From Thermodesulfobacteriota bacterium (GTDB lineage Bacteria; Desulfobacterota; Desulfarculia; JACQYL01): 64,000 nt of DNA. This document shows, in pieces, positions 5,522-27,187 of this stretch. The position numbers and the translations under genes were made by a program. Position 1 is the first letter of the stretch; every line of letters begins with the position of its first letter. The notes under the pieces were generated by a model. That model saw nothing but the letters and a program-made list of their open reading frames with translations, was not told the DNA's origin and made no database searches. The stretch covers positions 224,001 through 288,000 of the forward strand of contig CAXXLZ010000002.1 of NCBI GenBank assembly GCA_963675595.2, written 5' to 3'.

Positions 5522-9070
<3,549 letters not shown>

Positions 9071-9143
9071 CCGACTGTCCACTACAGAATTAATTCTCCG
9101 GCCAAAGCGGGTAGAACTGAATTTTCGAGATCCAAATAATGCC

Positions 9144-9872
9144 ATGGAAAACCAAATTCTAAAAAATAGTCAGATCATGTCTGAAGTTATCAGACAGAAT
9201 TGGGAAATGGCAAGACACCACGAATCCAATAGATGGAGATATACGTATTACTATTATGCCGCTTTCGGTGCATATGTTTTCTATGTATCCAATATTTTAT
9301 CAGAAACAGAATTTGATATCCTAAGACTGTCTAAATATAAGCTAATACTAATAGCCAGTATTTCTATTATAATATACGCCATAGGCCGCGCATCACTTTA
9401 CCATCTTGTCTATTCAAATATAGAATACAAGAATCATATTAGGGCTCTTGAATATATTTCAAGTGATCTTGGGATTAACCATGGTATTTCTTACTATAGG
9501 CTATATATAACTAAACACAAACCAAATGCAACAAATAATGAATTTCGTTGTGCCTATATGGCCTTACCTCTAATGCTTCAGATAAGAAAGATTATGCCAT
9601 TACAAAATTTGACTATGGCTGGATCAGCTTTATCATTTTTTGCGTCAATCTTTTTTATTTCTATGGCAATGATAACTTTCGTTTTCAAGAACGGTTTATT
9701 ATCATGTCCGAATAACATAATCATAGCCATGTCTATTTCTTTAATATTTTCAGTGATGAATTTATCTAATCTAATTGATTCCTGCAACCGATTTCATTCT
9801 TACGCCGAACGAGAACTTGACAATCGAGACCCACGCTCTTTGAAAGTTGACTCTAATCGTCCTAATAAATAA
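9144..9872 (+). CDS. AT-rich multi-pass membrane protein, candidate defence effector
   Basis: 242 aa, about four hydrophobic segments, visibly far lower GC than its neighbours; lies between helicase and methylase. Confidence 0.75.
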   Translation: MENQILKNSQIMSEVIRQNWEMARHHESNRWRYTYYYYAAFGAYVFYVSNILSETEFDILRLSKYKLILIASISIIIYAIGRASLYHLVYSNIEYKNHIRALEYISSDLGINHGISYYRLYITKHKPNATNNEFRCAYMALPLMLQIRKIMPLQNLTMAGSALSFFASIFFISMAMITFVFKNGLLSCPNNIIIAMSISLIFSVMNLSNLIDSCNRFHSYAERELDNRDPRSLKVDSNRPNK

Positions 9873-9944
9873 GGGGGCTTCGGTCATTTCAGGATCTGAT
9901 TTTTTCTTCCCTTCTCGTTTACAGTAACCTCTTTGGAGTGATCT

Positions 9945-12836
9945 GTGACCCACGACATCAAAGCCCCCAAGAAACTCATTGAAACGGCGTTGCCCCTTAA
10001 CGACATCAATGCCGCGGCGGTTCGGGAGAAGTCCATCCGTCACGGGCATCCGTCCACGTTGCATCTTTGGTGGGCGCGGCGTCCTTTGGCCGTGGCCCGG
10101 GCGGTGATTTTCGCCCAGATGGTGAACGATCCGGGGTATGAACGCGCTTTGGGTCGGGGCATCAACAAAAAGGAAGCCGAAAAGGAACGGGAACGCCTCT
10201 TCGAAATCATCCGGAAGCTGGTGTTGTGGGAAAACACCAACAACGAAGCGGTGCTGGGGGAGGCTCGGGCGGAGATTTGGAAGAGCTGGAGGGAGACCTG
10301 CGCCCTGAACCGAAACCATCCCAAGGCTTCCGAATGGTTCGATCCGGAACGGCTGCCTGCCTTTCACGATCCCTTTGCCGGAGGCGGCGCCCTGCCCCTG
10401 GAAGCCCAGCGGTTGGGGTTGGAAGCCTATGCTTCGGACTTGAATCCCGTGGCGGTGCTCATCAACAAGGCCATGATCGAGATTCCGCCCAAGTTTTCGG
10501 GAAGAGCGCCGGTGGGTCCCCTGCCTCAAATGGAGCGGCAGTTGCGGGTGTCCGACGACTGGAACGGCGCCGCAGGTTTGGCCGAAGACGTTCGCCGGTA
10601 CGGCCATTGGATGCGTGAGCAGGCCTATCGGCGCATCGGGCATCTGTACCCCGAGGTGGAAGTGACTCGGGACATGGCGCAGGACCGACCCGACCTGGAA
10701 CCTTTGGTGGGAAAGAAGCTCACGGTCATCGCCTGGCTTTGGGCGCGCACGGTCAAGAGTCCCAACCCGGCCTATTCCCACGTGCACGTGCCGCTGGCCT
10801 CTACTTTCATGTTGTCCACGAAGCTCGGGAAAGAGGCGTATGTGGAACCGGTGGTGGAGGGAGATCAATATCGGTTTGTGGTGAAAACCGGGGCACCACC
10901 GGATCCCGAGAAGGCCAAAAGCGGCACAAAACTCGCGCGAGGATCCCACTTTCGATGCATTGTATCCAATTCTCCCATTGAACCGAGCTATATATACCAT
11001 GCTGCCAAATCCGGTGGTTTGGGGACCAAGATGATGGCGGTGGTTCTGGAAGGAGAAAAAGGACGCCTATATTTGCCTGGCAGTCCAGAGTTGGCGGCTT
11101 CAGCAAATCAAGCTCCACCAACCTGGGTTCCTGATTTGTCTATGCCGGAGAACCCTCGATGGTTCTCTCCGCCCCTCTATGGACTGAAAAACTACGGCGA
11201 CCTCTTCACCCCGCGCCAGCTCACCGCCCTGAACACGTTTTCGGACTTGGTGTCGGAAGCCCGGGAAAAGGTGAAATCCGACGCTTTGGCCGCGGGATGG
11301 GTCGGCGACGGCCTCGGGTTGGACGCCGGCGGAAACGGCGCAACGGCCTATGCGGACGCGGTGGCGGTGTATTTGGCGTTTGCTGTGGATAAGGGGGCTA
11401 ACTACTGGTCAACGCTCTGTTCCTGGCATTCCGGACGAGACACTGTGACAAGTACCTTCGGGCGTCAGGCGCTACCAATGGTCTGGGATTTTGCGGAAGC
11501 CAACCCTTTGAGCAAATCGTCGGGGAATTTCCTTTCCGGAGTCAATCAGGCCTCCGAGCTGTTGCGGAGGAGAATACCCGCTTCATCGGGGCACGCTTAT
11601 CAAGAAGATGCAGCCTCTCAAGCAAGCAGTTTAAGCAGAATTATTTCTACGGACCCACCTTACTACGACAACATCGGCTACGCTGATTTATCGGATTTCT
11701 TTTACGTGTGGCTGCGTAGAAGCTTGAAACCCATCTTCCCCGGTCTCTTTTCAACCCTGGCGACTCCCAAAGCCGAGGAACTGGTGGCCACCCCCTATCG
11801 ACACGGGAACAAGGAGGCTGCCGAAAAGTTCTTTTTGGACGGCATGACTCAAGCCATGGAACGATTGGCGGAGCAAGCCCATCCCGCATTTTCCACGACC
11901 ATCTACTACGCTTTCAAGCAATCGGAGCTTAAGAAGCCTGGAGCCGTTTCCACCGGGTGGGAGACCTTCTTGGAGGCCGTTCTCAGGGCAGGCTTCTGTA
12001 TCGCGGGCACATGGCCGGTACGCACCGAGTTGATCGGCAACCTCAAGAAAGTTACCAATGCGTTGGCCTCCAGCATCATCCTCGTTTGTCGAAAACGGAA
12101 CGTCCAAGCCGCCACCGTCACCCGGCGGGAGTTCCTCCGAGAGCTCAATGCCGCTTTACCCGAGGCTCTGGCGGATATGACCCGGGGAGAGCACACCTCT
12201 CCGGTGGCCCCGGTGGACCTGGCCCAGGCGATCATCGGGCCGGGCATGGAGGTGTTTTCCAAGTATGCGGCGGTGCTGGAGGCGGACGGCAAACCCATGA
12301 CCGTGCGCACGGCGTTGCAGCTCATCAACCGATTTTTGGCCGAAGAAGACTTTGACCGGGACACCCAGTTCTGCCTCCACTGGTTTGAGACGCATCACTG
12401 GGCCGAAGGCCGTTTCGGCGAAGCCGACGTGCTGGCTCGCGCCAAGGGCACCAGCGTGGAGGGCGTTGCTCGGGCCGGAGTCGTCGAATCGGGCAAGGGC
12501 GCGGTGCGCCTGCTGCGCCACACGGAGTATCCTTTGGACTGGGACCCGGAAACGGACCGGCGGTGCCCCATCTGGGAAGCCCTGCACCATCTGGTGCGCA
12601 TCCTCAAGACGGACGGCGAAGCCGCCGCCGGCCGGGTGCTCGACCGCATGAAGGATCGGACCGACGCCCTGCGCCAACTGGCCTATCGGCTCTACGCCCT
12701 GAGCGAGCGCAAGAGCTGGGGGGAAGACGCCCGGACCTACAATGAACTGATCAACTCCTGGCAGGGAATGGAAACGTTGCGGGAAGACGCGCCCAAGACC
12801 GCACCCCACCGCCAGGACACTTGGCTGAAGGAGTAG
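9945..12836 (+). CDS. DUF1156-family adenine DNA methyltransferase
   Basis: N-terminal [11 protein letters not shown] (DUF1156), motif I DPFAGGG, motif IV TDPPYYD. Confidence 0.93.
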
Positions 12837-12875
12837 CGGCTTTTTCAACGGTCTCACAAGCCCACAGGAGCCTCC

Positions 12876-15701
12876 ATGTTGAAACCCTGGCGCGAAGTCG
12901 CCGTTCCCCATGAAGACGTGCTCAAGGGCACCTTCCAGCAGGCCGAATTCGCCGCGGACCTCTCCCGGGTGCACGACGGCACCGCAACGGCCGAATACCA
13001 GAACGCCGAGCTTTTCTTTCAGCGAACCTTCATCACCGAGGGCATGCGCCTGCTTCTGGATTCCGTGGTGCGACGGCTGGCCGGTCGGGGCGGAGACCCG
13101 GTGATCCAGCTTCAGACGGCCTTCGGCGGGGGAAAGACGCATACCTTGTTGGCCGTGTATCACCTGGCCCGGGGAGAAGCTTCGGCGGGAGACCTGCCCG
13201 GCGTGGCCCCGGTGCTCAACGGCGCCGGGGTGGTGGAACTGCCGCCGGTCCGGACCGCCGTGCTGGACGGCAACAAATTTGCGCCCAATGCGCCTCGCCA
13301 AAGTGACGGCATCAAGGTCCACACCCTGTGGGGAGAACTGGCCCGGCAATTGGGCGGCGAAGCGGGCTACCAACGAGTTCGGGACGCGGATGTTTCCGGC
13401 ACTTCCCCTGGGAAGCAAATCCTTGCCGAGCTCCTGGACGATTGTTCGCCCTGCGTGGTGCTTATGGACGAACTGGTGGCCTACATACGGCAGTTCGAAG
13501 AGGGCAAGTCCCTGGCGGGCGGCACGTATGAATCCAACCTGTCCTTTGTGCAGGCCCTCACCGAGTCCTTCAAGGCCGTACCCACGGCGGTGCTACTCGC
13601 TTCCCTGCCCGAGTCGGACAAAGAGGCCGGCGGAGTTCGAGGCCACGCGGCCCTGAAAACGCTGGAGCATTATTTCGGACGCACCCAGGCCTTGTGGAAG
13701 CCCGTGGGTTCCGAGGAGGCCTTCGAGATCGTTCGGCGAAGACTGTTCTCGAAGATCGACGACCGGGCGGCGGCAGAGGCGGTGTGCCGGGCCTTTGCCG
13801 ACTACTACACGGCCCAGGGCACTGATTTTCCACAGGAAACCCAGGAGAGTCGATACTACGCGCGGCTCACGGAGGCCTATCCCATCCATCCCGAAGTGTT
13901 CGACCGGCTGTACGGCGACTGGTCTTCCCTGGACAACTTCCAACGCACCCGGGGCGTGTTGAAGCTGATGGCCAAGGTGATCCACCGGCTGTGGAAGGAC
14001 GGCAACAACGACCTCATGATTCTGCCCGGGAGTCTGCCGCTGTACGATCCGGACACCCGCAACGAGGCCATTTACTACCTGCCTCAAGGATGGGACCCGG
14101 TGTTGGAAAACGACATCGACGGCGAGCGAGCCCAAACCACGGCCATCGAGAACAAGGAAACCCGACTGGGAGCGGTGCAGGCCTGCCGGCGTGCGGCCCG
14201 GACCATCTTCCTGGGCAGTGCGCCCACCACCCCCAATCAACTGGTCCGGGGGCTGGAAATCGAGCGGGTGATTTTGGGATGCGCCGAGCCCGGCCGACAG
14301 ACCGGCGTGTTCAAGGATGCCCTCGCACGCCTGACGGACCGGCTTCATTACTTGAACAGCGCGGACCATCGGTTCTGGTTCGACACACGGCCCAATCTTC
14401 GTAGGGAAATGGAGGAACGGAAGAAGCGGTTCAAGGATGGACAGGACGTGCTGCCCGTCATCCGGGAAGGGATACAGAAGAGCCTGCCCTCCGGGGTGTT
14501 CGGGGGGGTGCACGTATTCACACCGAGCGGAGACATTCCCGACGACCAGGCGCTTCGATTGGTGGTCCTTTCTCCTGAAACTCCCTTCTCCCGCACGGAG
14601 AACCGGTTCTGGAAACCCACGGCGGAAGAGATTCTGCTGAACCGGGGCGATCAGCCTCGCCACCGACAAAACCGCCTGCTGTTCTTGGCGGCGGACTTCG
14701 ACAACGTGGGTCGCCTCAAAGACCAGGTGCGCTCCATGCTGGCGTGGAAATCCATTGTTACGGACTATCGTGAAAACCGCCTCGTGCTGGACAATCTCAT
14801 GGCGGCCCAGGCGGAAGCCGCCCTCAAGCAGGCGCTGGAGGCTTTCAAGAAAGCTCTGCGCGAGACCTACAAATGGGTCCTGGCGCCCGGTCAGGAAGCA
14901 CAACCGGGAAAAGGCGTCTCCGAAATCTTCTGGGAACACTTTCCCATCAACTCCGGAGCCGCGAATCCTGCTCTGGAAATCGAAAAGGTGCTCAAAGAGA
15001 ACGTAACGCTCATTTTGGAGTGGGCGCCCTATCACCTTTCCAAAATGATGAAGCAGTGGTTCTGGAAGGAAGGCGTTCCTGCAGTGGGCGCCTTGGAGGT
15101 GTGGCAGGCCATGTGTTCCTTTCTGTATCTGGATCGGCTCAAGGACGAAGACGTATTCCGGGCCGTACTGACGGCCGGTTCGGAAAGCAGCGATTTCTTC
15201 GGATTGGCCCAAGGGAAGGAGGGGGACAAATACCTGGGGTTTTCCCTGGGAAAGGCTACCTCACCCGTTTTGGACAATTCTCTTCTGCTCATCGAACCCG
15301 AGACCGCGGCCGCCTATGCCGATGCTGAAGCAGCCTCTAAGGAAGGCAAGACCGGGATTCCCGGCGATCCCTACCCCGAAGGAACCCCCGGGGGCGGGAC
15401 GGGAGTCCAGGAACCGGGAGCGCCGGGATACAATGGTCAGGAAGAGGACTCAGCGGGGGAGCCCCCCAAGAAGCGTTTTTACGGTTCTCTGGAAATCGAT
15501 CCGGTAAAGGCCAAGAAGCAGTTTTCCGACATGGTGGACGAAGTGCTCATGCAGTTCAGCACTCGCCCCGACGTGAAGCTTCGAATCGTGCTGGAATTGG
15601 AAGCGGAAAGCCCTTCCGGGTTTGACGGGGCCACCCAGCGCACGGTGAAGGAGAACTGCGGGGTGTTGAAGTTCAGGAATGCGGAGTTCGAGAAGGGTTG
15701 A
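12876..15701 (+). CDS. DUF499-family AAA+ ATPase
   Basis: [14 protein letters not shown] start, FAADL, Walker [11 protein letters not shown], Walker B LMDE, YPIHPE and FQRTRGVL. Confidence 0.93.
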
Positions 15702-15774
15702 GATGCGCCTGGACGTCGCTCCGAGTTTCCGAATCGAAACCTAAGGAACCACAAGACGAATCGAGACCTTGCGC

Positions 15775-16017
15775 ATGAAAACCACGCTCTATTTTGATTA
15801 CACCCGAAGGCGACCGGATCGGGCTCGGATCAAGGAGGAATGGATCCGCTGGGTTATGAAGCATCCCGACCGGGTGGAAACACAATCCGACGGTAGGATC
15901 CGGAAGTGGGGCAGGATAGCCGAAGCGGGAAAAGTATTGAGAGTCATCCTGCTGGAAGACGGCGAAACCATCCATAATGCTTTTTTTGACCGATCCTACA
16001 AGGAGGAAAGCGAATGA
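15775..16017 (+). CDS. Putative type II toxin (DUF4258/RelE-like)
   Basis: About 80 aa basic protein with LRVILLEDGETIHNAFFDR, coupled (ATGA) to a DUF2283 gene. Confidence 0.7.
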   Translation: MKTTLYFDYTRRRPDRARIKEEWIRWVMKHPDRVETQSDGRIRKWGRIAEAGKVLRVILLEDGETIHNAFFDRSYKEESE

Positions 16018-16220
16018 AGGTCAAGTATTTCTCCGATACGGACACGGCCCATGTGGAATTCAGTGACCGGGAAGTGGCGGAGACGCGGGAGATCAGCGAG
16101 CACATCTACATCGACCTGGATGCCGGCGGCAATCTCGTGAGCATGACCATCGAACATGCCAAGGCCAACGCGGCGCTCTGGGAGTTCTCCTACCAGGAAA
16201 TGGCCCGAAGGACCGCGTAG
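16014..16220 (+). CDS. DUF2283-family putative antitoxin
   Basis: MKVKYFSDTDTAHVEF...IDLDAGGNLVSMTIEHA matches the DUF2283 pattern. Confidence 0.85.
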   Translation: MKVKYFSDTDTAHVEFSDREVAETREISEHIYIDLDAGGNLVSMTIEHAKANAALWEFSYQEMARRTA

Positions 16221-16303
16221 CTTTCGATGGATCGCCCGGTTCACCGATTCGCCTGTTGAAGCCTCTCGTTGGCTGCAATGAACCGAGTTGAAATTCGCTG
16301 GAG

Positions 16304-18736
16304 ATGAACATGCCCGACCTTGACAAGGTGATTTCTCTGGTTCTTCCCAATGGTCTGGAAAAGTCTCGATCCGGTCGACCCATTCGCGTATTGGGGATCG
16401 ATCTGGGTACCACCAACTCCACCGCTTCCACCGCTTCCTGGCGGGCGGGCGGTGCGTTTCCTCCCGAAGTCCGCTCCGTTGAAATCGTGCAACCCACTCT
16501 GCAGGGAGATTACACTCATTCTCTGTTGCCCTCGGTGGTGGCCCTCTACAACGGGCAGACCTACGTGGGGGAGGGAGCCAAACGATTGCGTTCCCGAGCC
16601 GCTGAACTGGGACTCAAGCCCTTCGAGAATCTATTCTACGAATGCAAGAACGAAATGGGGATAAAGAGGACCTATCACCGCGCCCCGGAAGGTTACCGAT
16701 CCCCGCCCGAAATCGGCGCCAAAGTCATCGACACCATGATCAAGGCCGCCGGCGAGGAGTTGGGGGCACAGCCCGATCGGGTAGTAATCACGGTTCCGGC
16801 CTCCTTTCAGACGGCCCAAAGGATGGACACGCAACAGGCGGCTCAACTGGCCGGTTTGAATATCGCCGGTGGAGACCTGTTGGACGAGCCGGTGGCTGCG
16901 TTTCTCGATTACGTGTTTACCTCGGGCGTGGATTTGGGATTGGAACGTGCCTCTTCTCGGACGGTGGTGGTGTTCGATTTCGGAGGCGGCACTTGTGACG
17001 TGGCGGTATTTCGATTGAAGCGAACCGGCACGGAACCGGGGCCTTTGGGCGTCGAGTTTCTGGCCGTTTCCCGGTACCACCGGTTGGGCGGGGGGGACAT
17101 CGATGCGGCGGTGGTTCATGAATGCCTGATTCCCGAGCTTTGCCGACAAAACCACCTCAACCCCCTGGATCTAGGGTTCGAAGACAAGAAGAAATACCTG
17201 GAACCCGCTCTTCTGGGTACCGCGGAAATGCTCAAGGAAGGCCTCTGCACGGAAATCCAACGTCTCATGAGTTTCGATAAGTATGAGGGAGCCGACAAGA
17301 CGACCATGGTGAAAACCCAGCCTGGGACCCAGGAGTGTCGGGTGGGGAACCGCAGTTACCGATTGACCGCTCCCAAGCTTTCCACCGCACAACTGGAAGA
17401 GCTTCTGGATCCCTTTCTGGACCAGGATTTACTCTATGCCCGGGAGACGGAATACCGGATGACCTGCTCCCTGTTCGCTCCGCTGCAGGATGCGTTGGAC
17501 CGTGCGGGATTGGAGCCGCGTCAAGTGGATTACTGCCTCATGGTTGGGGGTAGCAGCTTGATTCCTCAAGTGAGGGAAAGTGTCGGGGCCTATTTTTCCA
17601 AGGGTGAGCTCCTGCTTTTCGGGAGCCGGGAAGACTACAAGACGTGCATCTCACGGGGGGCGGCCATTCACGCCGTAGCGTTGGAGGCCATGGGCAGGCC
17701 CCTGGTGCAACCCATATGCCATGACGAAATCGCCATCCGAACCCAAAGCGGACGGATTGGACTGATTTCCAAAGGCAGTTTCCTGCCCTTTCCGGCGGAC
17801 GGCGGCTTCGCCTATTCCTACGAAGTCGCCGTGCCGAATACCACGACCGTCGAGCCCTGTAATGTGCGTGTGGAATTGGCAACCAAGGAAGATGACCGTC
17901 AACTCTTTTCCCAGGTATGGTCCGTACCGGGTCCGGTGACCCAGGGAACGCCCATCCGCTTGGAATATCGGATGGATGAAAACCAGGTGCTCCAGCTCAA
18001 GGCAAGGCTGGACGAGATGGATGAAGGGGAAGAGTTTTCCGCGACCCTGGAGAATCCACTGACCCACGTGGTGAACCCGAATGAAAAGCGCCTTGAGATC
18101 GACCGAACGGAAGAAGACCTGCGCACCGGAAGGATTCCAAAGACTCAGGTCCCGGAAAAGCTCGCGGAACTCTCGAAGCTCTATGCCGAGCTGAACCAGC
18201 TGGAAAAAGCGATTGATTTTATCAAACGGGCCATCGCCGCCCGCAATCCTCCGGATGTGTTTCTGCTCAACCGACTGGCCGCATACTACGGTGAACGTGG
18301 TGATTCGGAACGCCAGGAAAAGGTATATCGGGAAGCGACTCGGGTTTCTACGTGGAGCGGCTCGTGGTTCAACTTGGCCCTGGCCTTGTGGCGCCGCAAG
18401 AAGTTCTCCAAAGCACGGGAGGCCATAGACCAGGCCATTGAAATAGACCGACAGGCGCCCTACCTGGTGCTGGCCGGATTGATTGCGGGCTCACTTAAAG
18501 ACTCGGAAAAGAGCCAAGCGCTGCTTTCCGAAGCCATGGACTCGTTCGATCCGGTACCCGGTCTGGATGATTTTGAATTGGGTTGGTTTGTAAAAGGAGC
18601 GCAGACCCTTTCCGACCAAGACAAGCTGTCAGAGGGTCGGGCGGAGCAACTGAAGCGATCAAAAACAGAGGACAGGTCGACCCCGGAAGGCGAACTACCT
18701 GTGGCTACCCCTGGATTGATGAGGACGGCATCATGA
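16304..18736 (+). CDS. Atypical Hsp70-family ATPase with C-terminal TPR-like repeats
   Basis: GIDLGTTNS, VITVPASF, DEPVAA, FDFGGGTCD, LGGGDID, VGGSSLIP; C-terminus has TPR-like helices (AELNQLEKAIDFIKRAI; WFNLALALWRRKKFSKAREAIDQAIE). Confidence 0.9.
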   Translation: MNMPDLDKVISLVLPNGLEKSRSGRPIRVLGIDLGTTNSTASTASWRAGGAFPPEVRSVEIVQPTLQGDYTHSLLPSVVALYNGQTYVGEGAKRLRSRAAELGLKPFENLFYECKNEMGIKRTYHRAPEGYRSPPEIGAKVIDTMIKAAGEELGAQPDRVVITVPASFQTAQRMDTQQAAQLAGLNIAGGDLLDEPVAAFLDYVFTSGVDLGLERASSRTVVVFDFGGGTCDVAVFRLKRTGTEPGPLGVEFLAVSRYHRLGGGDIDAAVVHECLIPELCRQNHLNPLDLGFEDKKKYLEPALLGTAEMLKEGLCTEIQRLMSFDKYEGADKTTMVKTQPGTQECRVGNRSYRLTAPKLSTAQLEELLDPFLDQDLLYARETEYRMTCSLFAPLQDALDRAGLEPRQVDYCLMVGGSSLIPQVRESVGAYFSKGELLLFGSREDYKTCISRGAAIHAVALEAMGRPLVQPICHDEIAIRTQSGRIGLISKGSFLPFPADGGFAYSYEVAVPNTTTVEPCNVRVELATKEDDRQLFSQVWSVPGPVTQGTPIRLEYRMDENQVLQLKARLDEMDEGEEFSATLENPLTHVVNPNEKRLEIDRTEEDLRTGRIPKTQVPEKLAELSKLYAELNQLEKAIDFIKRAIAARNPPDVFLLNRLAAYYGERGDSERQEKVYREATRVSTWSGSWFNLALALWRRKKFSKAREAIDQAIEIDRQAPYLVLAGLIAGSLKDSEKSQALLSEAMDSFDPVPGLDDFELGWFVKGAQTLSDQDKLSEGRAEQLKRSKTEDRSTPEGELPVATPGLMRTAS

Positions 18737-19953
18737 ATGGAGCTGTGAGTTGGTTGATCCCAAGAGAGGAATTAACCCGAGAACAGGTGCGGGCCATCGA
18801 GATGGACCCGAAGGAACACCGAGTCATTTTGGGAGGCCCCGGATCCGGAAAGACTCAGATTCTGCTGCACCGTGGTCGGTTCCTCCAGGAAGCCTTCAGG
18901 GTGGCCCCCGAGCGCTTCCGCATTTTCGTATACACCAACGCCCTGCGCACCTACATACATTCCGCACTGAACCTGCTGGACCTGCCGGATGATTCGGTTT
19001 CCACCTTGGATGCTTGGTGCGGGAAGTTCCACACCGAAAACATCGGACGCCGTCTTCCATGGAACAAGGAAGCGAAATGTCGGGATTTTGGGACGATCCG
19101 GGAGGCCGTAGTCAAGAAGATTTCTGAGAGCGGGAACAAGCCTTTTGATTTTGTCCTGGTGGACGAAGCCCAGGATTTGGACGCTACGGCTTTGAAACTG
19201 CTGAAGGCCATGTCCAACCATGTGACGGTCTGCGCGGACCACAAACAGCAACTCTACGACCACGGATCGGAGATATCCGAAATTCTCCGGACTCTCGGCG
19301 TGAAACGAAGCAACGTAACCCTGCTGGAAACCTATCGTTGCTGCCCATACATCGTCTCGCTAGCGGCCGAACTCATCGATGATCCCACGGAGCGGGAGCA
19401 ATACGTCAGACAGTTGAAAACAAGCCAGGCCGAGCGTGAGACACCTTTGCTTTACTGCGCTTCCGATGCGGAAGACGAAACACGACAGATGATCGACCTC
19501 GCACGCACCAGACTCAATAAGGGCGAACGGGTGGCGGTGCTCTTTCCTCAGAAAAGGCAGGCCTTCGGTTACGCCAAGGCTCTGGAAGAAGCGGGCATCC
19601 AGGCGGAGAATCCCAATGATCTGGACTTCACTACGGACAAGCCCAAGCTGATGCCTTACCACAGCGCCAAGGGGCTCACCTTCGACAGCGTGATCCTCCC
19701 TCGGTTGACACCGAGGTCCTTCGGAACCATGTCCACGGACCGCATCAAGCACTTGCTCTTCGTGGGCATCACCCGAGCCATCAAATGGGCGGCCATGATC
19801 ACGACGCAAAGCAACGGCTTTGCGCCTCTTGCCCGGTTGACGCCGCCCGCCGGCCTCAGATGCCTAACGGTGCGGAAACATGGGGACTCATCGGCTGCGA
19901 CCGCGAATGCAAAAGGGAACGTTGAAGACGACGATGGACTGGATATTCTTTGA
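18733..19953 (+). CDS. Compact UvrD/Rep-like (SF1) helicase
   Basis: GGPGSGKT, VDEAQD, DHKQQLY, ETYRC, HSAKGLTFD, FVGITRA; ATG at 18733 overlaps the Hsp70 stop (ATGA). Confidence 0.92.
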   Translation: MNGAVSWLIPREELTREQVRAIEMDPKEHRVILGGPGSGKTQILLHRGRFLQEAFRVAPERFRIFVYTNALRTYIHSALNLLDLPDDSVSTLDAWCGKFHTENIGRRLPWNKEAKCRDFGTIREAVVKKISESGNKPFDFVLVDEAQDLDATALKLLKAMSNHVTVCADHKQQLYDHGSEISEILRTLGVKRSNVTLLETYRCCPYIVSLAAELIDDPTEREQYVRQLKTSQAERETPLLYCASDAEDETRQMIDLARTRLNKGERVAVLFPQKRQAFGYAKALEEAGIQAENPNDLDFTTDKPKLMPYHSAKGLTFDSVILPRLTPRSFGTMSTDRIKHLLFVGITRAIKWAAMITTQSNGFAPLARLTPPAGLRCLTVRKHGDSSAATANAKGNVEDDDGLDIL

Positions 19954-20002
19954 TGGGTGTCGGCGCAGCGGCGATCCGATTTGGAAGGCATGCATGGAGA
20001 AC

Positions 20003-20400
20003 TTAGGTGTTCCGCTCCAGCCATTCCTGCAAATTGTCCGTTTTGATCCGCAGCATGGGGTAGTCCCTTTCCATCCAGGCCAGGGTGATTTCCTGGATGT
20101 ACAAAATGCGAGGCGGATTGTGTTCCATACTTACAAGGCCAACATGAAATGCCTTCCCCGCTCCAAAGTGCGAAGGGTGTAGCACTTGTTTCGGACGCCT
20201 GCGGGATAGTCGGCGTGATACAAATGCAGATCGAGAAGCCTTTTCCCTCCGCCTTTGGGTTCCAGCCGATCCACCCGAATGGGGGAGCAAGTGTTGTCCC
20301 CCAATTCGTCTCCCAGGAATCGACACGCATACCAGTGTTTCGGTTTTAGTGTGAAGCGGGTTGCCTTTACATCGTCGCTTGATTTCCAATTGGATATCAC
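20003..20400 (-). pseudogene. Frameshifted small hypothetical gene
   Basis: ORF 20131-20400 (RFTLKPKHWYACRF...LERGRHFMLAL*) appears to continue in another frame as SMEHNPPRILYIQEI...; starts 2 nt after the upstream stop. Confidence 0.55.
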
Positions 20401-20402
20401 TG

Positions 20403-21458
20403 TCAGCCGCTCCAGATCATCGCTAACAACACGAGTAGGATGACGAATTGAATAATTGTGGCTACAACAAAGACGTTCTGTTGCATGAAAGTCTTGGATG
20501 TCTCTTTTATGGCTCCGATTTCAGATTCGATCTCCTCCACTTTGCGGTCGAACTTGGGTTCGATGTGCGTTTTCAGCGTGTTTTTCAGGTCGGTCAGAGC
20601 GGCATCCGTGGTGCGCTTTTGCTGCTGCAGCACTCCTGACAAGTCCCTCTGGACCGTTTCGATTCTTTGTCTTAGCTCCGGCTCCATTTCATTCTTGACA
20701 TAGGCGGTCATGCTTTCCCTGAATGCCGCGATTTGCTTTTCCTGGTTCTCCACTCTGTTTTCATACTCATCTTTGAGAGTGCTGAAATCTTTATTCAGAC
20801 CCCATACCGTTTCTTTGTATTTCTCGTCGTTTTTCCTCTGAAGGGACGAGAAGTCTCCCTGCAACTCGTTTCTATCCTTTTCGTACTTGGCCTCGATGGA
20901 TTGCTCCAATGCGGAAAATCTTCCTTGGGTTTCTCCGATCAGATCTCCAAACTTCGTTTTATAGGACCTCTCCGCCTCCAAGAGCCTTTCCATGGATCCC
21001 TCGATTTCTTCTTCGAGACGATTGGTCATAGCTTCGACCGCGGCATCCAGGCGGGCTTCCTGGTCCGCAATCCAGTCTTCCATGTCCTGCTTCGTCTGGT
21101 CTATCCATTCCGAGGTGGATTGGACGTTGGCCTCACCCTTCTCATAGACGCCCTGGACAAGGCGGTTCGCTTCCTCCAGCAACCGAGCGTAACCGCCCAT
21201 GGTATCCGTGAAGGTCGCTACCGATCCTTCGGATTTCTTCTGAAGCTGTCCGATCTTTTCGTACAATGTTTCATACGCGTCTTGATAGTCGGCAATGCTC
21301 TCCTGGACGTCGCTGCGAAGTTGCTCCAGCTCATCTCGTATTCTTCGAAGGTTGCCGACAAGTCCGGCCAAGTCCTGAGCCTCTTTGTCCAATTCGCGAA
21401 TGCGCTGTTCCGCCAAGCTTATGTCGAGAAGCGATTTCGATTCCATCGTGATCACCAT
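20403..21458 (-). CDS. Long coiled-coil protein with C-terminal transmembrane anchor
   Basis: E/K/Q/L-rich helical sequence ending VFVVATIIQFVILLVLLAMIW; start overlaps the RecQ stop (ATGGTGA). Confidence 0.85.
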   Translation of the reverse strand: MVITMESKSLLDISLAEQRIRELDKEAQDLAGLVGNLRRIRDELEQLRSDVQESIADYQDAYETLYEKIGQLQKKSEGSVATFTDTMGGYARLLEEANRLVQGVYEKGEANVQSTSEWIDQTKQDMEDWIADQEARLDAAVEAMTNRLEEEIEGSMERLLEAERSYKTKFGDLIGETQGRFSALEQSIEAKYEKDRNELQGDFSSLQRKNDEKYKETVWGLNKDFSTLKDEYENRVENQEKQIAAFRESMTAYVKNEMEPELRQRIETVQRDLSGVLQQQKRTTDAALTDLKNTLKTHIEPKFDRKVEEIESEIGAIKETSKTFMQQNVFVVATIIQFVILLVLLAMIWSG

Positions 21459-24400
21459 TTGGCCAGTTCGGTTTTGAGGGCTTGGTCTTTGTTCAACCTT
21501 CCGATCGTCTGACCAAACTGCTTCTGGTATAAGTTGCAGCTTAGCGACAAGGCTTCTTCGTGTTCCAGGCCGGCCTTCTCCATATCCGCAGCCATCATCC
21601 TGACAAAATCCATATCCTCGGAAGCGCCGTCGACCTTGGCATAAGTCCTGATGGCGGATGCGCCGTCAAATCGAGCATATTTCTCATAGCCCCAAGTCGA
21701 GAGTTCCAAATTCTTGTGCATAATGTTTTCTATTTCCGCAAATTGCCGGTGATATCTATGGGCTGAAGACCTGATTTCTGCATCATCTTCTCTTTGAAAC
21801 GAGTCGGCGACTCCCATATTTGCCAATGAATTGATCGGGTCGACCTCCAGCTTGGCCGCTGCATGCTGTCCAAAAGCAACCACAAAGCCTTGCTTTTCGG
21901 CTTCATCTAAAGCCCATTCGTATTCCTGAACGTCTTTGGTCTCAAAGGAGTGCTCTTCTCTGACCAAAATGTCCCTATGTTGCGCATTGTCTTTTGCCGG
22001 AACAGCGGAACTCAGGGTGAAATTCAGGTCTGGAACACAGGAATCACTATCGCAAAATCCACATTTATGTCCATCGTCCACCTGACTCATCGTTCCCAGT
22101 AGATATTGTCTCCTGCATCGATTCTTTATCCGAACATATGTCATAAGATTGAGCAAAGATTGAAGGCGCATACTGAGCACATATTTCCTGACCTCAGTGA
22201 ACAGTCTATATACCGCATTTTGTACATGAAAATCTTTCGGCGGACTATTATTGTTTGGAATATCTCCCACCAAAACTTTTCGCTGTATTTCGTTTATCGT
22301 TTCTACGTCCAATTCCTTAGATCGACCAAGTTCGCTTCTAAAAGTGGCCATCTTCATTAGTTCAGATATTAAAGAAGTAATCATTGAATAACATGTTGGT
22401 TTTTCAACAGGCATTATCAAGAAGTCTATATCCGTAAACCGACCAATGCTATTATACTTCAACTTAAAATGACTAATCAGCTTTAGTTGTTGTAGTCTAA
22501 ACAACTCATTGTTTATTCCTATCAGCAACTTATCCGCATGTGCACTGTTAGTCTTTACACTTTTGACCCAGTAGCCATCGACAGGGTTCTTCGATTTGAT
22601 CTCTTGCCACAGTTTGGTGGTCCTTTCGGCGAATTTCTCAGGGCTTGCATAATGTTCAAGGACCATTCTGAACTGTCGTGAGAAGTCGCAAGGTTCGGGT
22701 AATCCTATCTCGGGTGGACACTTCCGTTGCAGATAATATTTCCCTCTCATGCAAGGCGGAAGCAAAAAATCATCTTCTCGGGTTACCAGGCCGATCGTTT
22801 CCAGATGTTCGTCTAAGCATTTCCGGGTTGGTAGACGCACCACGAGCGAGCAATGGGAATGCTCTCCGTCCCTGCCGGCTCTCCCGACCTCCTGATAATA
22901 CCCTTCGATACTGGCGGGCATGCAGGAATGTACAATGAACCTGAGGCCTCTGTGGTCAATGCCCATTCCATAGGCTTTCGTAGCCACCAATAACGGAATG
23001 GCCTTTGCCTTGAATCGACGCTGGACTTTAAGAATATCCTTGTCCCAGTTTGGGTCGGATTTCGGTTTGCGGAAGGTATGGCCGTTGGAGCATTGGAATC
23101 CTCCTCCATCTTCAGCCGGAATATTTCGAATGGCATAGACGAACTTCCCTTCCTGTTTGCAATAAGGGCAGAAGTCTGGGGTATGGGACGCATAAATATT
23201 GAAGAACTGATTCTCGATAATACCCCTAACGTCCAGCATATTGCCTATAGCACCGACGCCGTCTTGCCAAGAGGTCTGCCCTTTAGGGTTCGCATACACA
23301 CAAAAGATAGCCCCACATCCTATACCCTCCCAATGCCCTTGACTGAAGCCGGCCCAGTCGAAATCGTGGGTATACCGGAGAGCCGTCGGAATGGCCATCG
23401 TCAAGATATCACAAATGGAATCATGACGATCATCCGGATATCTTGTCCCTGCAAGTGTGTGAACCGAAAAAGAAAGCTCGGTCCGATCAATATTTGCCTC
23501 AGCGAGCAGACTTCCACCGTCTCTGCAATCCTTCACACTAAGATTCAAAATTCCACAAATGTCTTCCTTGACGGGATCGGTCGCCGTGGCCGTCAGAGCA
23601 AGAATCGGCGTTTCAATTCCACTTTGATATGCTGAGACGTTCTTCAAGAAAAATGGTATCTGCAAATAGGCGATGCGAAAGTCATGGCCCCACTCCGATA
23701 CGCAGTGGGCCTCATCGATGCAAAGCAAACTGAGACAAACGGAAGCGGAAGCTTTTTCAAGCTTATCAGAAAAACTTAATATTTGTAGGCGTTCCGGAGC
23801 AACATAGAGGATATCTACAAAGCCATATAGGAAGTCGTCGACGGCATCCTCCTTATCACTGGAACTCATGTCATAACGGATGGATTTGACCATATTAAAG
23901 CCTTTGTTCAAGGCCAAATCCTCCACTTGGTCTCTCATGAGTGCTCTCAAGGGAGAGATGATCAGGGTACTGGAGGGCAGCAGTTTGGCCGCCAATTGGA
24001 ACGCGGCCGACTTCCCTCTGCCTGTGGGCAGGATACCCAGAATTGATTTCCCCGAGAGAACGCCGCAAATCAGCTCATACTGCCTGAGTTCCGTGTTCGG
24101 ATTCTCAGGATCATAATGGTGCCAAAGGAAGGGTATGCGCAGTAAACGTCTGGAGAAGTAGTCGATCAACGATTTACGGAAACAAACCGGAGCCGAAGTG
24201 ATTCGCGCTTTTGATCGATCAACGGTCAGCGCCCGAAATCTTGCCCGCAAGGTGGCGATATTACAGGCTTCCCTTCCGAGAATATTGGGTCTTGCGGCAA
24301 CATCCGGAGTTAACGGGATTCTGCCTTCACGAGTCAGGTCAATGATTAAGTCCGGAACCTCATCGTTGGACCGACTGCTTCCTATCTTGAAGATATTTTC

Positions 24401-25660
24401 GATGTCTTTAAGTACATGAGCGTCAGGACCTTTCTCCATCGCTTCAACATAACCGCCTGCAATCTTATCCAAGACTTCCACCTGCCCGGTGATAACACCT
24501 CCATGACCGTTAACTAAGCGAAAATCAGGAAACCGGTATTCCACACCGTATAGTTTTTGACATTGCTTTATGATCATCCGCAAGTCATACAGAGCCAAGA
24601 AATTTAGATTTGGGAGTTTGGAATTATCAATGATGGTGATTTCGCCGGATTCTTCTGTATAGTAGAGCTGCAAAAGCATGCCCATTTGAAAAGGCCTGAA
24701 CCATTTCGAGTAGCCCTTGAAAGTGTCTATAATGATTGATTGGTCCTCGCTGTTCGCATGCACCATGCCGGGTGCATCGAAGATACTGGTCTGATCGCAG
24801 CTCAGAGAGCTTTTGGGTATGACGCCCAAGATATTGTCGATAATTCGTTCCGGCTCCTGAAGGATTTGTCTTGCAGGGTATCGATATAGCTGATAGCCCA
24901 AGGATAAAATGTAATTCTGACGCTTTAATTGTCTTTCCCATTCCTCAGGCGATATCCTGTCCGGATCATGGTATTCGCGGCCGTCTACCTCGATAATGGT
25001 GCCCTTGCCGCCCGTATTTATGAAGAAATCGCCCACATAGTTGGATCCCTCGATTTTCATCTGAGGGGTGATGAAGTCAAGAGCGGATAGTCCATAGGCC
25101 GGCACGATGACGTTGATGATGAACGCTCGCTCGGCGAAGTGCGGGTCCGGGTTGTCGAGGGATGTTTCGTAATGGCCTTTTTCTTCCAACCACTGATCGA
25201 CTTGATCCAGGTCGGTAGCGGTAGGTGGCTTGAATTGGGGAGAATTGAATAACTCGATGAATTTCCGGCTGAATCTGTACCTGGGCATGTAGGAAGGACC
25301 CGCGTAGTACGCTTCCCCGACCGGTTCCGGACGACATGTTTTGGGGGAGTAGTCGGAATCCAAACAAGTGATCCTGTTTCCACGAGCTGCGATGGCAGGA
25401 TTCAAGCCGTTTCCGGAATTTCTCCCCTGTTCGAACTCCACCAAGTCGGGATTCATGTCGGCTATCGCGGCAACGATGGCAAACTCCAATTGATAGGGCA
25501 GCTGTTTTATCAGGGCCTCAGGAGCCAGATGAGGCAGGTATTCCAGACCCGTGTTCCGGGGATACTCAGAATCGTTTTCCAAAGAACTCCGAAAAAGCCT
25601 GGGGTCGATCATCCTGGCGATCAGATCGATGAATTCCCGTCGATTCATACGCGCGCCCAC
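21452..25660 (-). CDS. Large RecQ-family helicase with N-terminal DUF559/Vsr-like nuclease domain
   Basis: LPTGRGKS, IDEAHCVSEWGHDFR, LTATAT, VATKAYGMGID, YYQEVGRAGRDG, CRR...CGFCD..C; N-terminal DFF...IIEVDGREYH...RQNYILSLGYQLYRY. Confidence 0.9.
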   Translation of the reverse strand: MGARMNRREFIDLIARMIDPRLFRSSLENDSEYPRNTGLEYLPHLAPEALIKQLPYQLEFAIVAAIADMNPDLVEFEQGRNSGNGLNPAIAARGNRITCLDSDYSPKTCRPEPVGEAYYAGPSYMPRYRFSRKFIELFNSPQFKPPTATDLDQVDQWLEEKGHYETSLDNPDPHFAERAFIINVIVPAYGLSALDFITPQMKIEGSNYVGDFFINTGGKGTIIEVDGREYHDPDRISPEEWERQLKRQNYILSLGYQLYRYPARQILQEPERIIDNILGVIPKSSLSCDQTSIFDAPGMVHANSEDQSIIIDTFKGYSKWFRPFQMGMLLQLYYTEESGEITIIDNSKLPNLNFLALYDLRMIIKQCQKLYGVEYRFPDFRLVNGHGGVITGQVEVLDKIAGGYVEAMEKGPDAHVLKDIENIFKIGSSRSNDEVPDLIIDLTREGRIPLTPDVAARPNILGREACNIATLRARFRALTVDRSKARITSAPVCFRKSLIDYFSRRLLRIPFLWHHYDPENPNTELRQYELICGVLSGKSILGILPTGRGKSAAFQLAAKLLPSSTLIISPLRALMRDQVEDLALNKGFNMVKSIRYDMSSSDKEDAVDDFLYGFVDILYVAPERLQILSFSDKLEKASASVCLSLLCIDEAHCVSEWGHDFRIAYLQIPFFLKNVSAYQSGIETPILALTATATDPVKEDICGILNLSVKDCRDGGSLLAEANIDRTELSFSVHTLAGTRYPDDRHDSICDILTMAIPTALRYTHDFDWAGFSQGHWEGIGCGAIFCVYANPKGQTSWQDGVGAIGNMLDVRGIIENQFFNIYASHTPDFCPYCKQEGKFVYAIRNIPAEDGGGFQCSNGHTFRKPKSDPNWDKDILKVQRRFKAKAIPLLVATKAYGMGIDHRGLRFIVHSCMPASIEGYYQEVGRAGRDGEHSHCSLVVRLPTRKCLDEHLETIGLVTREDDFLLPPCMRGKYYLQRKCPPEIGLPEPCDFSRQFRMVLEHYASPEKFAERTTKLWQEIKSKNPVDGYWVKSVKTNSAHADKLLIGINNELFRLQQLKLISHFKLKYNSIGRFTDIDFLIMPVEKPTCYSMITSLISELMKMATFRSELGRSKELDVETINEIQRKVLVGDIPNNNSPPKDFHVQNAVYRLFTEVRKYVLSMRLQSLLNLMTYVRIKNRCRRQYLLGTMSQVDDGHKCGFCDSDSCVPDLNFTLSSAVPAKDNAQHRDILVREEHSFETKDVQEYEWALDEAEKQGFVVAFGQHAAAKLEVDPINSLANMGVADSFQREDDAEIRSSAHRYHRQFAEIENIMHKNLELSTWGYEKYARFDGASAIRTYAKVDGASEDMDFVRMMAADMEKAGLEHEEALSLSCNLYQKQFGQTIGRLNKDQALKTELAKW

Positions 25661-25860
25661 TTCCCATCAGATGGTCACAAGATTCCGTGCAGACAATTCC
25701 TCCGACGCCCGGAGTATGAGGGATATCGTCGACAGTAACCAGCAAATTCCGGAGTTTGCCGTTCCAAGTCAAGCTCAAAATAGCCGAATATTCCGTCTTG
25801 ACCCGCGAGTGGGGTTAACTGAAAAGAAACAATCCTAATTTGAAGTGATTTCATAGGCAT

Positions 25861-26877
25861 TCATGAAAGGTTTACGCGTGCATTCGGCCGATCGGTCGAC
25901 AGGAGCGCGGTGTTGATTTTTACTTCCCCAACAGCAATTCCACTTTCACCGGCGGACACTGCGTATACCTGACCATTCAGCCCGGAACCCAGTGCAGACC
26001 AATTTGCCCCGTTCCAGACCGCAGCGTTGGCCGCATCGCCGCCCCCGGCTTGAGTGAAATATCCTCCAACGTACACCTTTCCGCCGGAAGACGGTGCGAT
26101 TCCATAAACACCGCCATTCAATAAGGGGATCCATAGAAAACCATTCCAATTGGCAATGTTGGAAGCGAAACTCCACCTGCTTCGGTAAAAGCACCACCCG
26201 CATAAAGGTTCCCCGATGAATCGGTGGCTAAGGCATATACCGGACCGTTGGTTCCCACCCCCAGAGGGGTCCAAGAGGATCCGCTCCAACGGGCAATGTT
26301 ATTTGCGGAACCAGCTCCTACAGAGCTGAACGATCCTCCGGCGTAGACAGTTCCTATCTTGCTCTTGGCAAGGCTATAGACAGGTCCATTCCAGGAGGTC
26401 CCCCAATACCGACCCCTCTTTATTGAGCCACTGAGAACCGTCCCATTCGGCCAAGTTTTGGCAGATAGTGTCACCGGCCTGATAGAAAGAGCCGCCCGCC
26501 AAGATACCACCATTTCCGTCGGGGCCTATGGCCCACACCGGGCCTTCATAGACACCCCATATCCCGAAAACGTCCCACCAGCCTTCATCCATTAGGTTGG
26601 TCGGCTCGGTCAAAGAGCGGTCGTCTCGTTCCGAGGATGGACGGACCGAAACACTCGGGATACCTTCTGGCGAGATTGCACTGGTCAGTGGATCAGGATG
26701 GGGAGATTCCTGTATGGCATGCCGGGAGTAGGGATTCCGGTCGTCTTCAATGCCCTGAGCATAGGCCATGCAACTTGCACAAAGCATCAACAGCACGGGA
26801 AAAGCTCGAACTCGAAATAAGATTGCGCAAGACGGAGAGCCGCAGAGAGCCCGAGTGGATACCCACATTTTTACCAA
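25861..26877 (-). pseudogene. Fragmented secreted beta-propeller repeat protein
   Basis: Signal-peptide-like start, then repeats of type VYAGGSF...NIARWSGSSWTPLG.G.NGPVYALA spread over three reading frames; breaks off near 25920. Confidence 0.75.
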
Positions 26878-27187
26878 CTTGAATACATTTACATTCAGAA
26901 TTTTGTATTCTTAGAGCAAATAAGTATGCATAACACAAACTTTTTCGCTTTTTTACGGACAAACGAACGATTCCAAACACCGTTGCCTCGGACTGAAGCC
27001 GCCGGAGCGTCGCGTTTCGGACTTGAGAACGCATCATATCAGGGGGTTTTGTCGGATCAGGACAAACGGGAGGGATGTTTTTTCGGCTCATCGGAATTCC
27101 GTCGTGAGTGACATAACGGCAGGACTCCGCAGAGACGCTGCAAAGTTTTTCGGCAAGGACTTACTTGGTTATGGTCGATCTTCCTGA

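Follow-up and report, generated by a model that had tools for sequence, protein, structure and literature searches.

The stretch of DNA considered here (64,000 nucleotides of a Thermodesulfobacteriota genome, G000:C2:224001-288000, hereafter the window) contains an overlapping pair of genes that encode an Hsp70-TPR protein (P0001) and a minimal UvrD-like helicase of superfamily 1 (SF1; P0002). This pair is the subject of the present analysis, and it is laid out as follows.

16304-18736, plus strand: Hsp70-TPR gene (P0001), 810 amino acids (aa); open reading frame (ORF), Pfam HSP70 (1.6e-33) and TPR families, AlphaFold2 (AF2) model with pLDDT 86.3, Foldseek matches to DnaK
18733-19953, plus strand: minimal UvrD-like SF1 helicase gene (P0002), 406 aa; Pfam, conserved motor motifs, model pLDDT 89.5
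18733-18736, plus strand: ATGA stop/start overlap coupling both genes; read directly from the sequence

Translation gave both reading frames as the first-pass annotation, made from the sequence alone, had described them, and direct reading confirmed the ATGA overlap that it had reported. A Shine-Dalgarno-like run, GAGGA, occupies positions 18721-18725, and the ATGA follows eight bases after it. In the public protein collection, the counterpart of P0001 (P0003) is 808 aa long and starts two codons downstream, and thus the true start of P0001 may be two codons later. Contigs from three DNA runs over 9001-29000 only re-covered the assembly, and a promoter and terminator scan of 15500-20600 gave no more sites than shuffled sequences did.

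The Hsp70-TPR protein could be divided into the following parts.

16379-17692, plus strand: Hsp70 nucleotide-binding domain (NBD) with intact ATPase residues (residues 26-463); VIA-align, 24-sequence alignment
17693-18058, plus strand: interdomain linker and beta-sandwich substrate-binding domain, with no lid after it (residues 464-585); model strands 468-583, VIA-align
18083-18661, plus strand: TPR array of eleven helices in the lid position (residues 594-786); model helices, Pfam TPR families
18689-18700, plus strand: conserved C-terminal G-x-L-P motif (residues 796-799); 60-sequence alignment

The Pfam HSP70 match is best over residues 29-283, and TPR_8, TPR_2 and TPR_1 were found around residues 620-750 (TPR_8 1.5e-11 at 687-717). 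Residues D33, K93, E195, D225, T230 and D232 are invariant in all 24 aligned family members (48-62% identity), and the linker and many beta-sandwich residues are likewise invariant in this alignment. We take these six residues to be the equivalents of D8, K70, E171, D194, T199 and D201 of DnaK, which are catalytic or phosphate-binding. The AF2 model, which was built on this alignment and has a mean pLDDT of 86.3, places the NBD at 27-463, the beta-sandwich at 468-583 and the eleven helices at 594-786, followed by a short C-terminal segment. When the model was searched with Foldseek, DnaK structures came out on top (4b9q_A, E 1.5e-28). VIA-align gave Z 31.8 with Geobacillus DnaK 2v7y over model residues 26-583, a range in which the lid-less DnaK chains 2v7y and 5obu align with the NBD and beta-sandwich together, and Z of about 30.5-31 (root-mean-square deviation, rmsd, 2.4-3.3 Å; about 350 residues aligned) with NBD-only Hsp70 chains. 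The DnaK alignments stop at residue 583-592, that is, where the lid should begin, so the alpha-helical lid is replaced by the TPR array. Thus, two readings of the first-pass annotation, that all Hsp70 nucleotide-binding motifs are intact and that a TPR-like C-terminus stands in place of the DnaK lid, were both borne out. Taken together, alignment and model show a catalytically complete Hsp70 ATPase domain joined to a beta-sandwich and to a TPR array in place of the lid.

Across 60 sequences, the TPR surface residues N656, D667, Y675, F689-N690-L691, L759, W761 and R785 are kept. In the G-x-L-P motif, conservation in these sequences is 0.80 for G796, 0.85 for L798 and 1.00 for P799, and this region of the model (pLDDT about 71) has short strands at 797 and 800-801. 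The TPR sequence of P0001 matches consensus TPRs and, among natural proteins, OGT, Cdc27, the Hsc70 co-chaperone SGT (1.2e-4) and Hop (4.3e-3); this similarity is a generic TPR likeness and does not prove peptide binding. Mean pairwise identity within the family is 51% for the NBD, 36% for the beta-sandwich and 37% for the TPR array. In NCBIfam, P0001 scored 120.5 bits with the DnaK model NF001413 (cut-off 648) and 122.6 bits with the HscA model TIGR01991 (cut-off 708.55).

P0002 matched the Pfam families UvrD-helicase (1.6e-14), UvrD_C (1.5e-11), AAA_19 and Viral_helicase1, and no nuclease domain was found in it by Pfam. Motifs Q, I, Ia, II, III, IV, V and VI are all conserved columns across 40 helicases of the family, in which Q18, GSGKT (37-41), DEAQD (144-148), R202, KGLTFD (313-318) and R348 are kept. 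The P0002 model (pLDDT 89.5) could be superimposed on UvrD 4c2t_B (Z 35.1, rmsd 3.2 Å, 364 residues aligned to a 645-residue chain) and on UvrD 2is6_B (Z 35.7). As just 364-381 residues align with UvrD-type chains of 631-658 residues, P0002 is best described as two RecA-like domains with stubs for 1B and 2B. The first-pass annotation had claimed intact helicase motifs, no nuclease and none of the large UvrD/Rep insertions, and this holds, with the insertions reduced to stubs. The nearest known relatives are UvrD/PcrA, and the score against the UvrD equivalog NF008743 is 76 bits (cut-off 965).

One further feature lies at the very end of the helicase gene.

19924-19950, plus strand: acidic-hydrophobic C-terminal helicase tail EDDDGLDIL after a disordered linker (residues 398-406); 49 tails, 40-sequence alignment

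Residues 388-406 are disordered in the model (pLDDT under 50). Across the family, the last six to nine residues keep one pattern, in which an acidic stretch leads into a hydrophobic end; DDLLDIL, DLDFL, LSDLF and DYDAPF are examples. A strict acidic-plus-hydrophobic-end rule describes 70 of 105 full-length family representatives, and most of the others have variants such as TDWL. No covariation between the type of tail and the conserved TPR residues was seen by eye. P0002 is a motor-competent UvrD-like core that has no nuclease and carries a flexible linker and a conserved acidic-hydrophobic peptide.

To collect relatives of the pair, a pattern scan was run over one genome per species; at least 420 were found, and the best 80 loci were kept. 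Sequence beyond the Hsp70 match was present in 69 of these, and the other 11 end at a contig edge. In 65 of these 69, the gene immediately after the Hsp70 gene, in the same orientation, encodes a helicase homolog. In 32 of 64 pairs a start codon is placed so that the 4-nt overlap results, which is the commonest arrangement, and most of the others have gaps of -1 to +21 nt. The claimed translational coupling is therefore not peculiar to the window: it is a conserved unit. Comparison of the Hsp70 and helicase distance matrices for 49 loci gave a Mantel r of 0.695, whereas the highest value reached by 999 permutations was 0.174. The two proteins are inherited, transferred and diverging as one unit. 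No conserved third gene was found beside the pair in the 80 loci, and small flanking ORFs (37 cases and four ORFs of the window) had no common family, except in two pairs of closely related loci.

Four loci are exceptions to adjacency. L078 (5517-11402) is an orphan form of the sensor half: it has an intact 801-aa Hsp70-TPR gene and no helicase, with a Cpn60/GroEL-family gene before it and a gene for a secreted beta-propeller-like protein after it. L061, with an intact 806-aa Hsp70-TPR frame and no helicase, is probably an orphan as well. L067 contains an Hsp70 remnant of 374 aa, and in L076 the Hsp70 gene is broken into two frames. A much more distant version was present in L086 (7959-12955 of a 92-kb IMG/VR contig classed as viral), where an 811-aa Hsp70-TPR protein 25% identical to P0001 is accompanied by a 395-aa mini-UvrD protein (family profile 6e-36) and a 459-aa ORF that has no Pfam family. 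The existence of such a divergent version suggests that the architecture of Hsp70-TPR protein plus helicase is old.

Additional evidence came from a profile of 40 helicases, which was compared with 1.84 billion representative proteins and retrieved 632 of them (clusters at 50% identity) at E ≤ 1e-30. Among the best 150 of the 632 were two long proteins, P0176 (842 aa) and P0194 (876 aa), which are natural NBD-helicase fusions. Both have Pfam HSP70 and UvrD domains, and the first ~445 residues of each are the NBD of the Hsp70-TPR family (P0176 residues 18-444 versus P0001 26-460, 39% identity, E 1e-78; P0194 NBD versus P0001 26-470, 40% identity, E 3e-78). In P0176 the NBD passes straight into the helicase (446-822 versus P0002 2-371, 41% identity, E 3e-92). 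Both fusions are devoid of the beta-sandwich substrate domain, the TPR array and the acidic-hydrophobic tail. They are just 44% identical to each other, and therefore a single assembly error does not account for them. An earlier word search among P0002-related proteins of 712-2030 aa had yielded no fused form at E ≤ 1e-20, which is weak evidence, as the profile search later found the fusions. Their genomic loci were not found in metagenome scans (source contigs of 13.6 and 4.6 kb). Among the computational results, these fusions are the best indication that the ATPase domain works together with the helicase. The joint loss of beta-sandwich, TPR array and tail in covalently fused forms is what would be predicted for a tethering device. 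It also means that client binding or sensing by the beta-sandwich is not essential in every lineage.

The distribution of the family is patchy. None of 40 relatives of this genome has a match at E ≤ 1e-60, and in the Hsp70 tree (60 rows) phyla are intermingled and taxonomy is not followed; for example, a Clostridia copy is joined to two Acidobacteriota copies, with end branches of 0.06-0.09. The family was absent, at E ≤ 1e-40, from 72,556 PLSDB plasmid and 50,697 INPHARED phage records. In IMG/VR, one or two close family members (L085 and the fragment L087) were present among 87 Hsp70-like matches, in addition to the 25%-identical L086. The cassette is accessory and horizontally mobile. The L085 member (3047-6812 of a 6.9-kb IMG/VR contig) is 45% identical and lies directly after a CI/LexA-like repressor gene (helix-turn-helix and Peptidase_S24), which suggests a prophage-like setting; this contig stops ahead of the helicase position.

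In the window itself, the pair is part of an island of ~28.9 kb, whose other features are given below.

19630-19706 of L084, 295-371 nt before window base 1: tRNA-Arg(CCT); tRNA search beyond the window
559-3393: primase gene with DUF927, near the tRNA end; Pfam
5522-9070: HmaA; full-length PADLOC match
9945-12836: HmaB; full-length PADLOC match
12876-15701: HmaC; full-length PADLOC match
27188-28399, minus strand: tyrosine-integrase gene; Pfam
28513-28562: 50-nt direct repeat of the tRNA-Arg 3' end (to the base after the called gene), the copy beside the integrase gene

The tRNA gene and the repeat bound the island. No tRNA was found within the 64-kb window by ARAGORN or Rfam; as the 3' end of the tRNA-Arg just outside it is repeated beside the integrase gene, the first-pass annotation was right in regarding the island as a tRNA-integrated mobile element. 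The Hma system is complete, and the Hsp70-helicase pair comes directly after HmaA-HmaB-HmaC on the same strand. When 27 ORFs of the first 31.6 kb, of which 24 belong to the island, were scanned with Pfam, neither a J-domain nor a GrpE family was hit, in agreement with the claim that no dnaJ or grpE is nearby. It is possible that the Hsp70-TPR protein uses housekeeping J-proteins of the host. Elsewhere, the genome has two further Hsp70-like frames, of 617 and 663 aa, which are likely the housekeeping genes.

Several other regions were noted. Between hmaA and hmaB, a 242-aa ORF (9144-9872, plus strand) has a weak sub-threshold Pfam match to 8xMP (octameric membrane protein; 4.6e-4) and no PADLOC match; the bin 8001-10000 has a GC content of 0.498, compared with ~0.58-0.59 in adjoining bins, and the ORF looks like a gene embedded within the Hma system. 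Between hmaC and the Hsp70 gene are two small overlapping ORFs on the plus strand, 15769-16017 (82 aa, no family) and 16014-16220 (68 aa, DUF2283 5.4e-17), possibly a small toxin-antitoxin-like pair. Beyond the helicase gene, 20403-25660 on the minus strand encodes a 1402-aa protein with a DUF559/MTES_1575-like endonuclease N-terminus and a RecQ/DpdF/PsyrT-like helicase (PADLOC DpdF 3.9e-70, PsyrT 6.5e-64); its gene overlaps the start of a gene for a 351-aa coiled-coil protein, also on the minus strand, the GC content is reduced to 0.46-0.50, and the region looks like a further defence-type module on the island. A fluoride riboswitch (Rfam RF01734, 45.5 bits versus a gathering score of 34) is located at 52663-52730 on the minus strand.

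We then considered the neighbors of the pair in other genomes. In 50 loci, the large ORFs among the two or three called genes that flank the pair on each side were compared with PADLOC at E ≤ 1e-40, and in 11 long loci that gave no match all further ORFs of at least 200 aa were tested as well. The former analysis revealed a defence-type gene near the pair in 22 of the 50 loci. The types were type IIG restriction-methylases, HKD+SNF2 or DrmD-like helicases, Hma, DndD/PbeC, Hachiman, type IV, PDC-S02 and type III methylase. The latter added three loci with matches within 10 kb (L040, AbiEii; L059, type II restriction-modification and SoFic; L069, type IIG), which brings the total to 25 of 50. 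Together with the complete Hma system beside the pair in the window, these matches agree with the defence setting proposed in the first-pass annotation. SNF2 and/or methylase or Hma genes occur within five called ORFs of the pair in 15 of 60 rows (among them L010, L048, L049, L072, L075 and L073). Their order and orientation vary, and they may be upstream, downstream, around the pair or on the opposite strand. In L048 (6795-17227), for instance, the pair is enclosed by an HKD+SNF2 helicase gene on one side and a type IIG/PglX-like methylase gene on the other; all four genes share a strand, and the two gaps measure 36 and 65 nt. When the SNF2/methylase/Hma label was placed on the 60-row tree it was scattered, with 12 changes for 15 labelled rows versus a shuffled mean of 13.4. 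The scattered label and varied order suggest repeated co-location with restriction-type modules and not one fixed larger system. Such co-location matches the concept of "guilt by embedding", as outlined in parts of a recent preprint (bioRxiv 10.1101/2024.01.29.577857). Among the 80 loci and the window, Hma genes are found with the pair in three cases only (the window itself, L050 and L073), and HmaB and HmaC were confirmed by PADLOC for L073 only.

The cassette is real, conserved, autonomous and mobile. Conserved adjacency, co-evolution, mobility, defence context, intact motifs, the conserved tail and natural fusions all argue for a role in defence, and judging by sequence the pair is a credible, though unproven, new bacterial defence module. 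The best reading, that it functions as an autonomous, mobile two-gene anti-phage or anti-mobile-element module, seems to us about evenly balanced; a role in defence of either kind, with an accessory variant counted in, is fairly probable.

With regard to mechanism, the Hsp70-TPR protein and the helicase would form a complex, in which the helicase tail may dock in the TPR groove, in the manner of EEVD or PTS1 peptides, or, alternatively, in the substrate cleft of the beta-sandwich. The tail is acidic and ends in a free hydrophobic C-terminus, in which it resembles the EEVD and PTS1 ligands of TPR receptors and differs from the basic-flanked peptides that DnaK prefers, so the TPR groove is favored over the cleft. 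The Hsp70 ATPase cycle would then gate the helicase. The first-pass annotation had suggested a chaperone-derived sensor, in which the Hsp70 part might bind a phage protein and thereby switch the helicase. Upon infection, the helicase may become an effector that acts on phage or other invading DNA or on replication intermediates, either by translocating along it and stripping off proteins or by consuming NTPs as proposed for GajB. Since it has no nuclease, its action would be non-degradative or would profit from restriction-type neighbors. The pair probably works as a chaperone-like switch that is gated by ATP and to which a helicase effector is tethered. A more specific proposal, which we put forward tentatively, is that of a stand-alone, chaperone-centered innate immunity in which Hsp70 was rebuilt as an ATP-gated switch that grips the C-terminal peptide of a minimal UvrD motor. 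It would invert the EEVD logic, with the TPR array on the Hsp70 and the tail on the client, and infection would release or activate the motor; we consider this possible, though less likely than not.

Several observations weigh against a defence role. The main ones are that neither a nuclease nor any other evident toxic effector is encoded in the cassette, and that the substrate-binding and TPR domains are moderately conserved and not hypervariable as in a diversifying sensor. The substrate domain is dispensable in some lineages, as it is missing from the fusions. The share of loci with defence neighbors is moderate, a raw count without a background rate for random accessory genes. Finally, eight loci with flanks of 8.6-10 kb had no defence gene at all and only housekeeping-type neighbors; the nearest large neighbors that could be named by Pfam were histidine kinases, acyl-CoA dehydrogenases, transporters and the like, and a few were unmatched. 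The same eight loci indicate that the cassette is autonomous and can stand alone.

This last point bears directly on the idea that the pair is an accessory arm of Hma, DISARM/ARMADA-like or BREX-like systems, with a sensing or motor role in the place of DrmA-DrmB or HmaC and inactive alone. The first-pass annotation had offered, as one option, an accessory arm of the upstream DUF499 system. The position of the pair directly behind HmaA-HmaB-HmaC in the window and the SNF2, methylase or Hma genes near a quarter of the 60 rows are consistent with it, and ARMADA type II is described, in sections of PMC12458937, as ending in a GajB-like UvrD helicase. However, Hma adjoins the pair in just three cases, at least eight long loci lack any defence gene, and the arrangement of the restriction-type neighbors varies and is scattered over the tree. 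We therefore consider the option of the first-pass annotation unsustained and an accessory role improbable in general. It is somewhat less improbable, although still unlikely, that this is a non-immune chaperone-helicase pair for DNA repair, replication restart, or the maintenance or transfer of mobile elements. DnaK/DnaJ remodel helicase-loader complexes in lambda replication, which provides an analogy; in addition, many copies have ordinary metabolic and regulatory genes as neighbors, neither a nuclease nor a toxin domain is present in the cassette, its domains are under steady purifying and not diversifying constraint, the pair in the window rides an integrative element with a primase, and the L085 copy adjoins a CI/LexA-like repressor gene. 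These points have to be set against the patchy distribution (0 of 40 relatives), rampant horizontal transfer, the presence of defence neighbors in half of the tested loci and of one copy inside a restriction-type operon. Furthermore, the absence of the family from plasmid and phage records and its near absence from IMG/VR speak against a role in element propagation.

A toxin-antitoxin-like abortive module is a different matter, as it would be one mechanism within the defence reading. In such a module, the Hsp70-TPR protein would hold a growth-arresting helicase by its tail, and infection would release it, for example when unfolded or foreign protein floods the substrate domain. The tight coupling, gene order, conserved tail and intact motors fit this version as they fit the ATP-gated switch, and chaperone-dependent toxin-antitoxin systems that sense phage are cited in a portion of PMC13069673. 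On the other hand, some intact Hsp70-TPR genes stand as orphans with no helicase (L078 and probably L061), and fused forms without the supposed inhibitory parts persist in two diverged lineages. We judge this version about as doubtful as the accessory arm.

Hsp70 is among the best-studied protein machines, and to our knowledge there is no validated anti-phage system built on it; only predicted roles are in print (CnuD of CoCoNuT systems and the conflict systems of the Aravind group). The cassette is directly testable because it is small (3.65 kb, two genes) and self-contained, with intact active sites and obvious point mutants. If it protects, it would show how a chaperone cycle is turned into an immune switch and would extend the known repertoire by a helicase effector that works without a nuclease. 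It would also account for at least 420 'DnaK-like' genes that lack annotation in the scanned species genomes, and for 632 helicase clusters (50% identity). Were the chaperone-centered proposal true, this would be the first experimentally tractable defence system with an Hsp70 core, widespread in environmental phyla that screens in model organisms have not sampled. If the cassette does not protect, it would still be an unexplored Hsp70-helicase partnership with natural fused forms.

Finally, we compared the pair with known systems. No model of PADLOC-DB 2.0.0, PDC and HEC candidates included, matched P0001 at E ≤ 0.01. Full-text literature searches revealed no description of an Hsp70-TPR gene paired with a UvrD-like helicase, with supplementary tables outside their scope, so that an unnamed listing is possible. 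With the same scope, the pairing was not found in the portions consulted of PMC3710099, bioRxiv 10.1101/2024.01.29.577857, PMC12458937, bioRxiv 10.1101/2025.11.14.688446, PMC13069673 and PMC12881386. These results agree with the first-pass annotation, which knew of no named system with this pairing.

The closest architecture in print is that of CnuD of type III CoCoNuT systems, described in the relevant passages of Bell et al. (eLife 2024, PMC11090510) as an Hsp70-like NBD/SBD (substrate-binding domain) with HEAT-like repeats in McrBC-centered operons. Both proteins share a lid-less Hsp70-type NBD/SBD followed by alpha-helical repeats and occur in predicted defence operons, and in both the function is predicted. 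However, those passages describe the Walker-type motifs of CnuD as degenerate, in contrast to the invariant ATPase residues of P0001, and the repeats of CnuD are HEAT-like and those of P0001 are TPR. Type III operons with CnuD reportedly also contain an SF1 helicase, CnuH, which is said to be UPF1-like; the helicase described here is nearest to UvrD/PcrA. The same passages present CoCoNuT as built on a McrB-like GTPase, McrC homologs and HEPN RNases. None of these is among the ORFs tested in the first 31.6 kb of the window, and no McrB, McrC or HEPN was found among the strong PADLOC matches of the neighbors tested in the 50 loci.

On the helicase side, UvrD-type helicases without 2B are, according to parts of PMC13069673, experimentally required in DarHTG (DarH), ietHAS (ietH) and type II Gabija. 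On that description, GajB, DarH and ietH are, like P0002, nuclease-free motors of the UvrD family, each serving as one subunit of a defence system with several proteins. Their partners are given there as an OLD/Toprim nuclease, a MazF-like protein or a toxin-antitoxin pair, in contrast to the Hsp70-TPR protein here. The best PADLOC matches of P0002 are GajB models (8.7e-20), and they are partial (e.g., residues 138-291; models of 369-647 positions); PADLOC gave no match to GajA in the first 31.6 kb, where 15 large ORFs were compared, 13 of them from the island, and in the related loci the helicase always has the Hsp70-TPR gene as its neighbor. The conserved C-terminal tail is specific to the Hsp70-TPR-associated family, unlike GajB-type helicases. 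Compared with UvrD, Rep and PcrA, P0002 keeps the SF1 motor motifs in 406 aa, versus ~650-720 aa, without full-size 1B and 2B. Similarly, P0001 shares with DnaK of the DnaK/DnaJ/GrpE system the NBD fold and catalytic residues, the interdomain linker and the beta-sandwich, and differs in the TPR array instead of the lid, a score far below the DnaK cut-off (120.5 versus 648 bits), its accessory gene and the lack of an adjacent J-domain or GrpE gene among the scanned ORFs.

As for the larger systems nearby, the pair adjoins Hma in the window, lies outside the Hma definition and is without Hma in all but two related loci. Genes of the kind found in DISARM/ARMADA lie beside the pair in up to 15 of 60 rows, namely those for SNF2 helicases (HKD+Snf2, DrmD-like) and for type IIG/PglX-like methylases, and no DrmA/DUF1998 match was found at E ≤ 1e-40 among the neighbors tested, which are part of the ORFs of each locus. 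HSP70- or HSP90-like NTPases can replace STAND modules in tripartite conflict systems, as stated in sections of a preprint of the Aravind group (bioRxiv 10.64898/2026.10.19.760177), and HSP70 with GTPase/tubulin or GrpE/DnaJ partners is mentioned there and in parts of Kaur et al. (2020, PMC7159879). The term 'UvrD' does not occur in the text consulted of PMC7159879; bioRxiv 10.64898/2026.10.19.760177 was not searched for it. Lid-less DnaK-like domains fused to protease-effector modules are reported in a section of bioRxiv 10.1101/2025.11.14.688446. On these partial accounts, the STAND-like tripartite systems and the pair would share an NTPase core followed by superstructure-forming repeats and a linked effector, which is the logic proposed here, whereas the effector is an N-terminal domain in the former and a separate protein in the latter. 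The cassette, unnamed in the sources searched, is a new member of the NTPase-switch plus helicase conflict systems.

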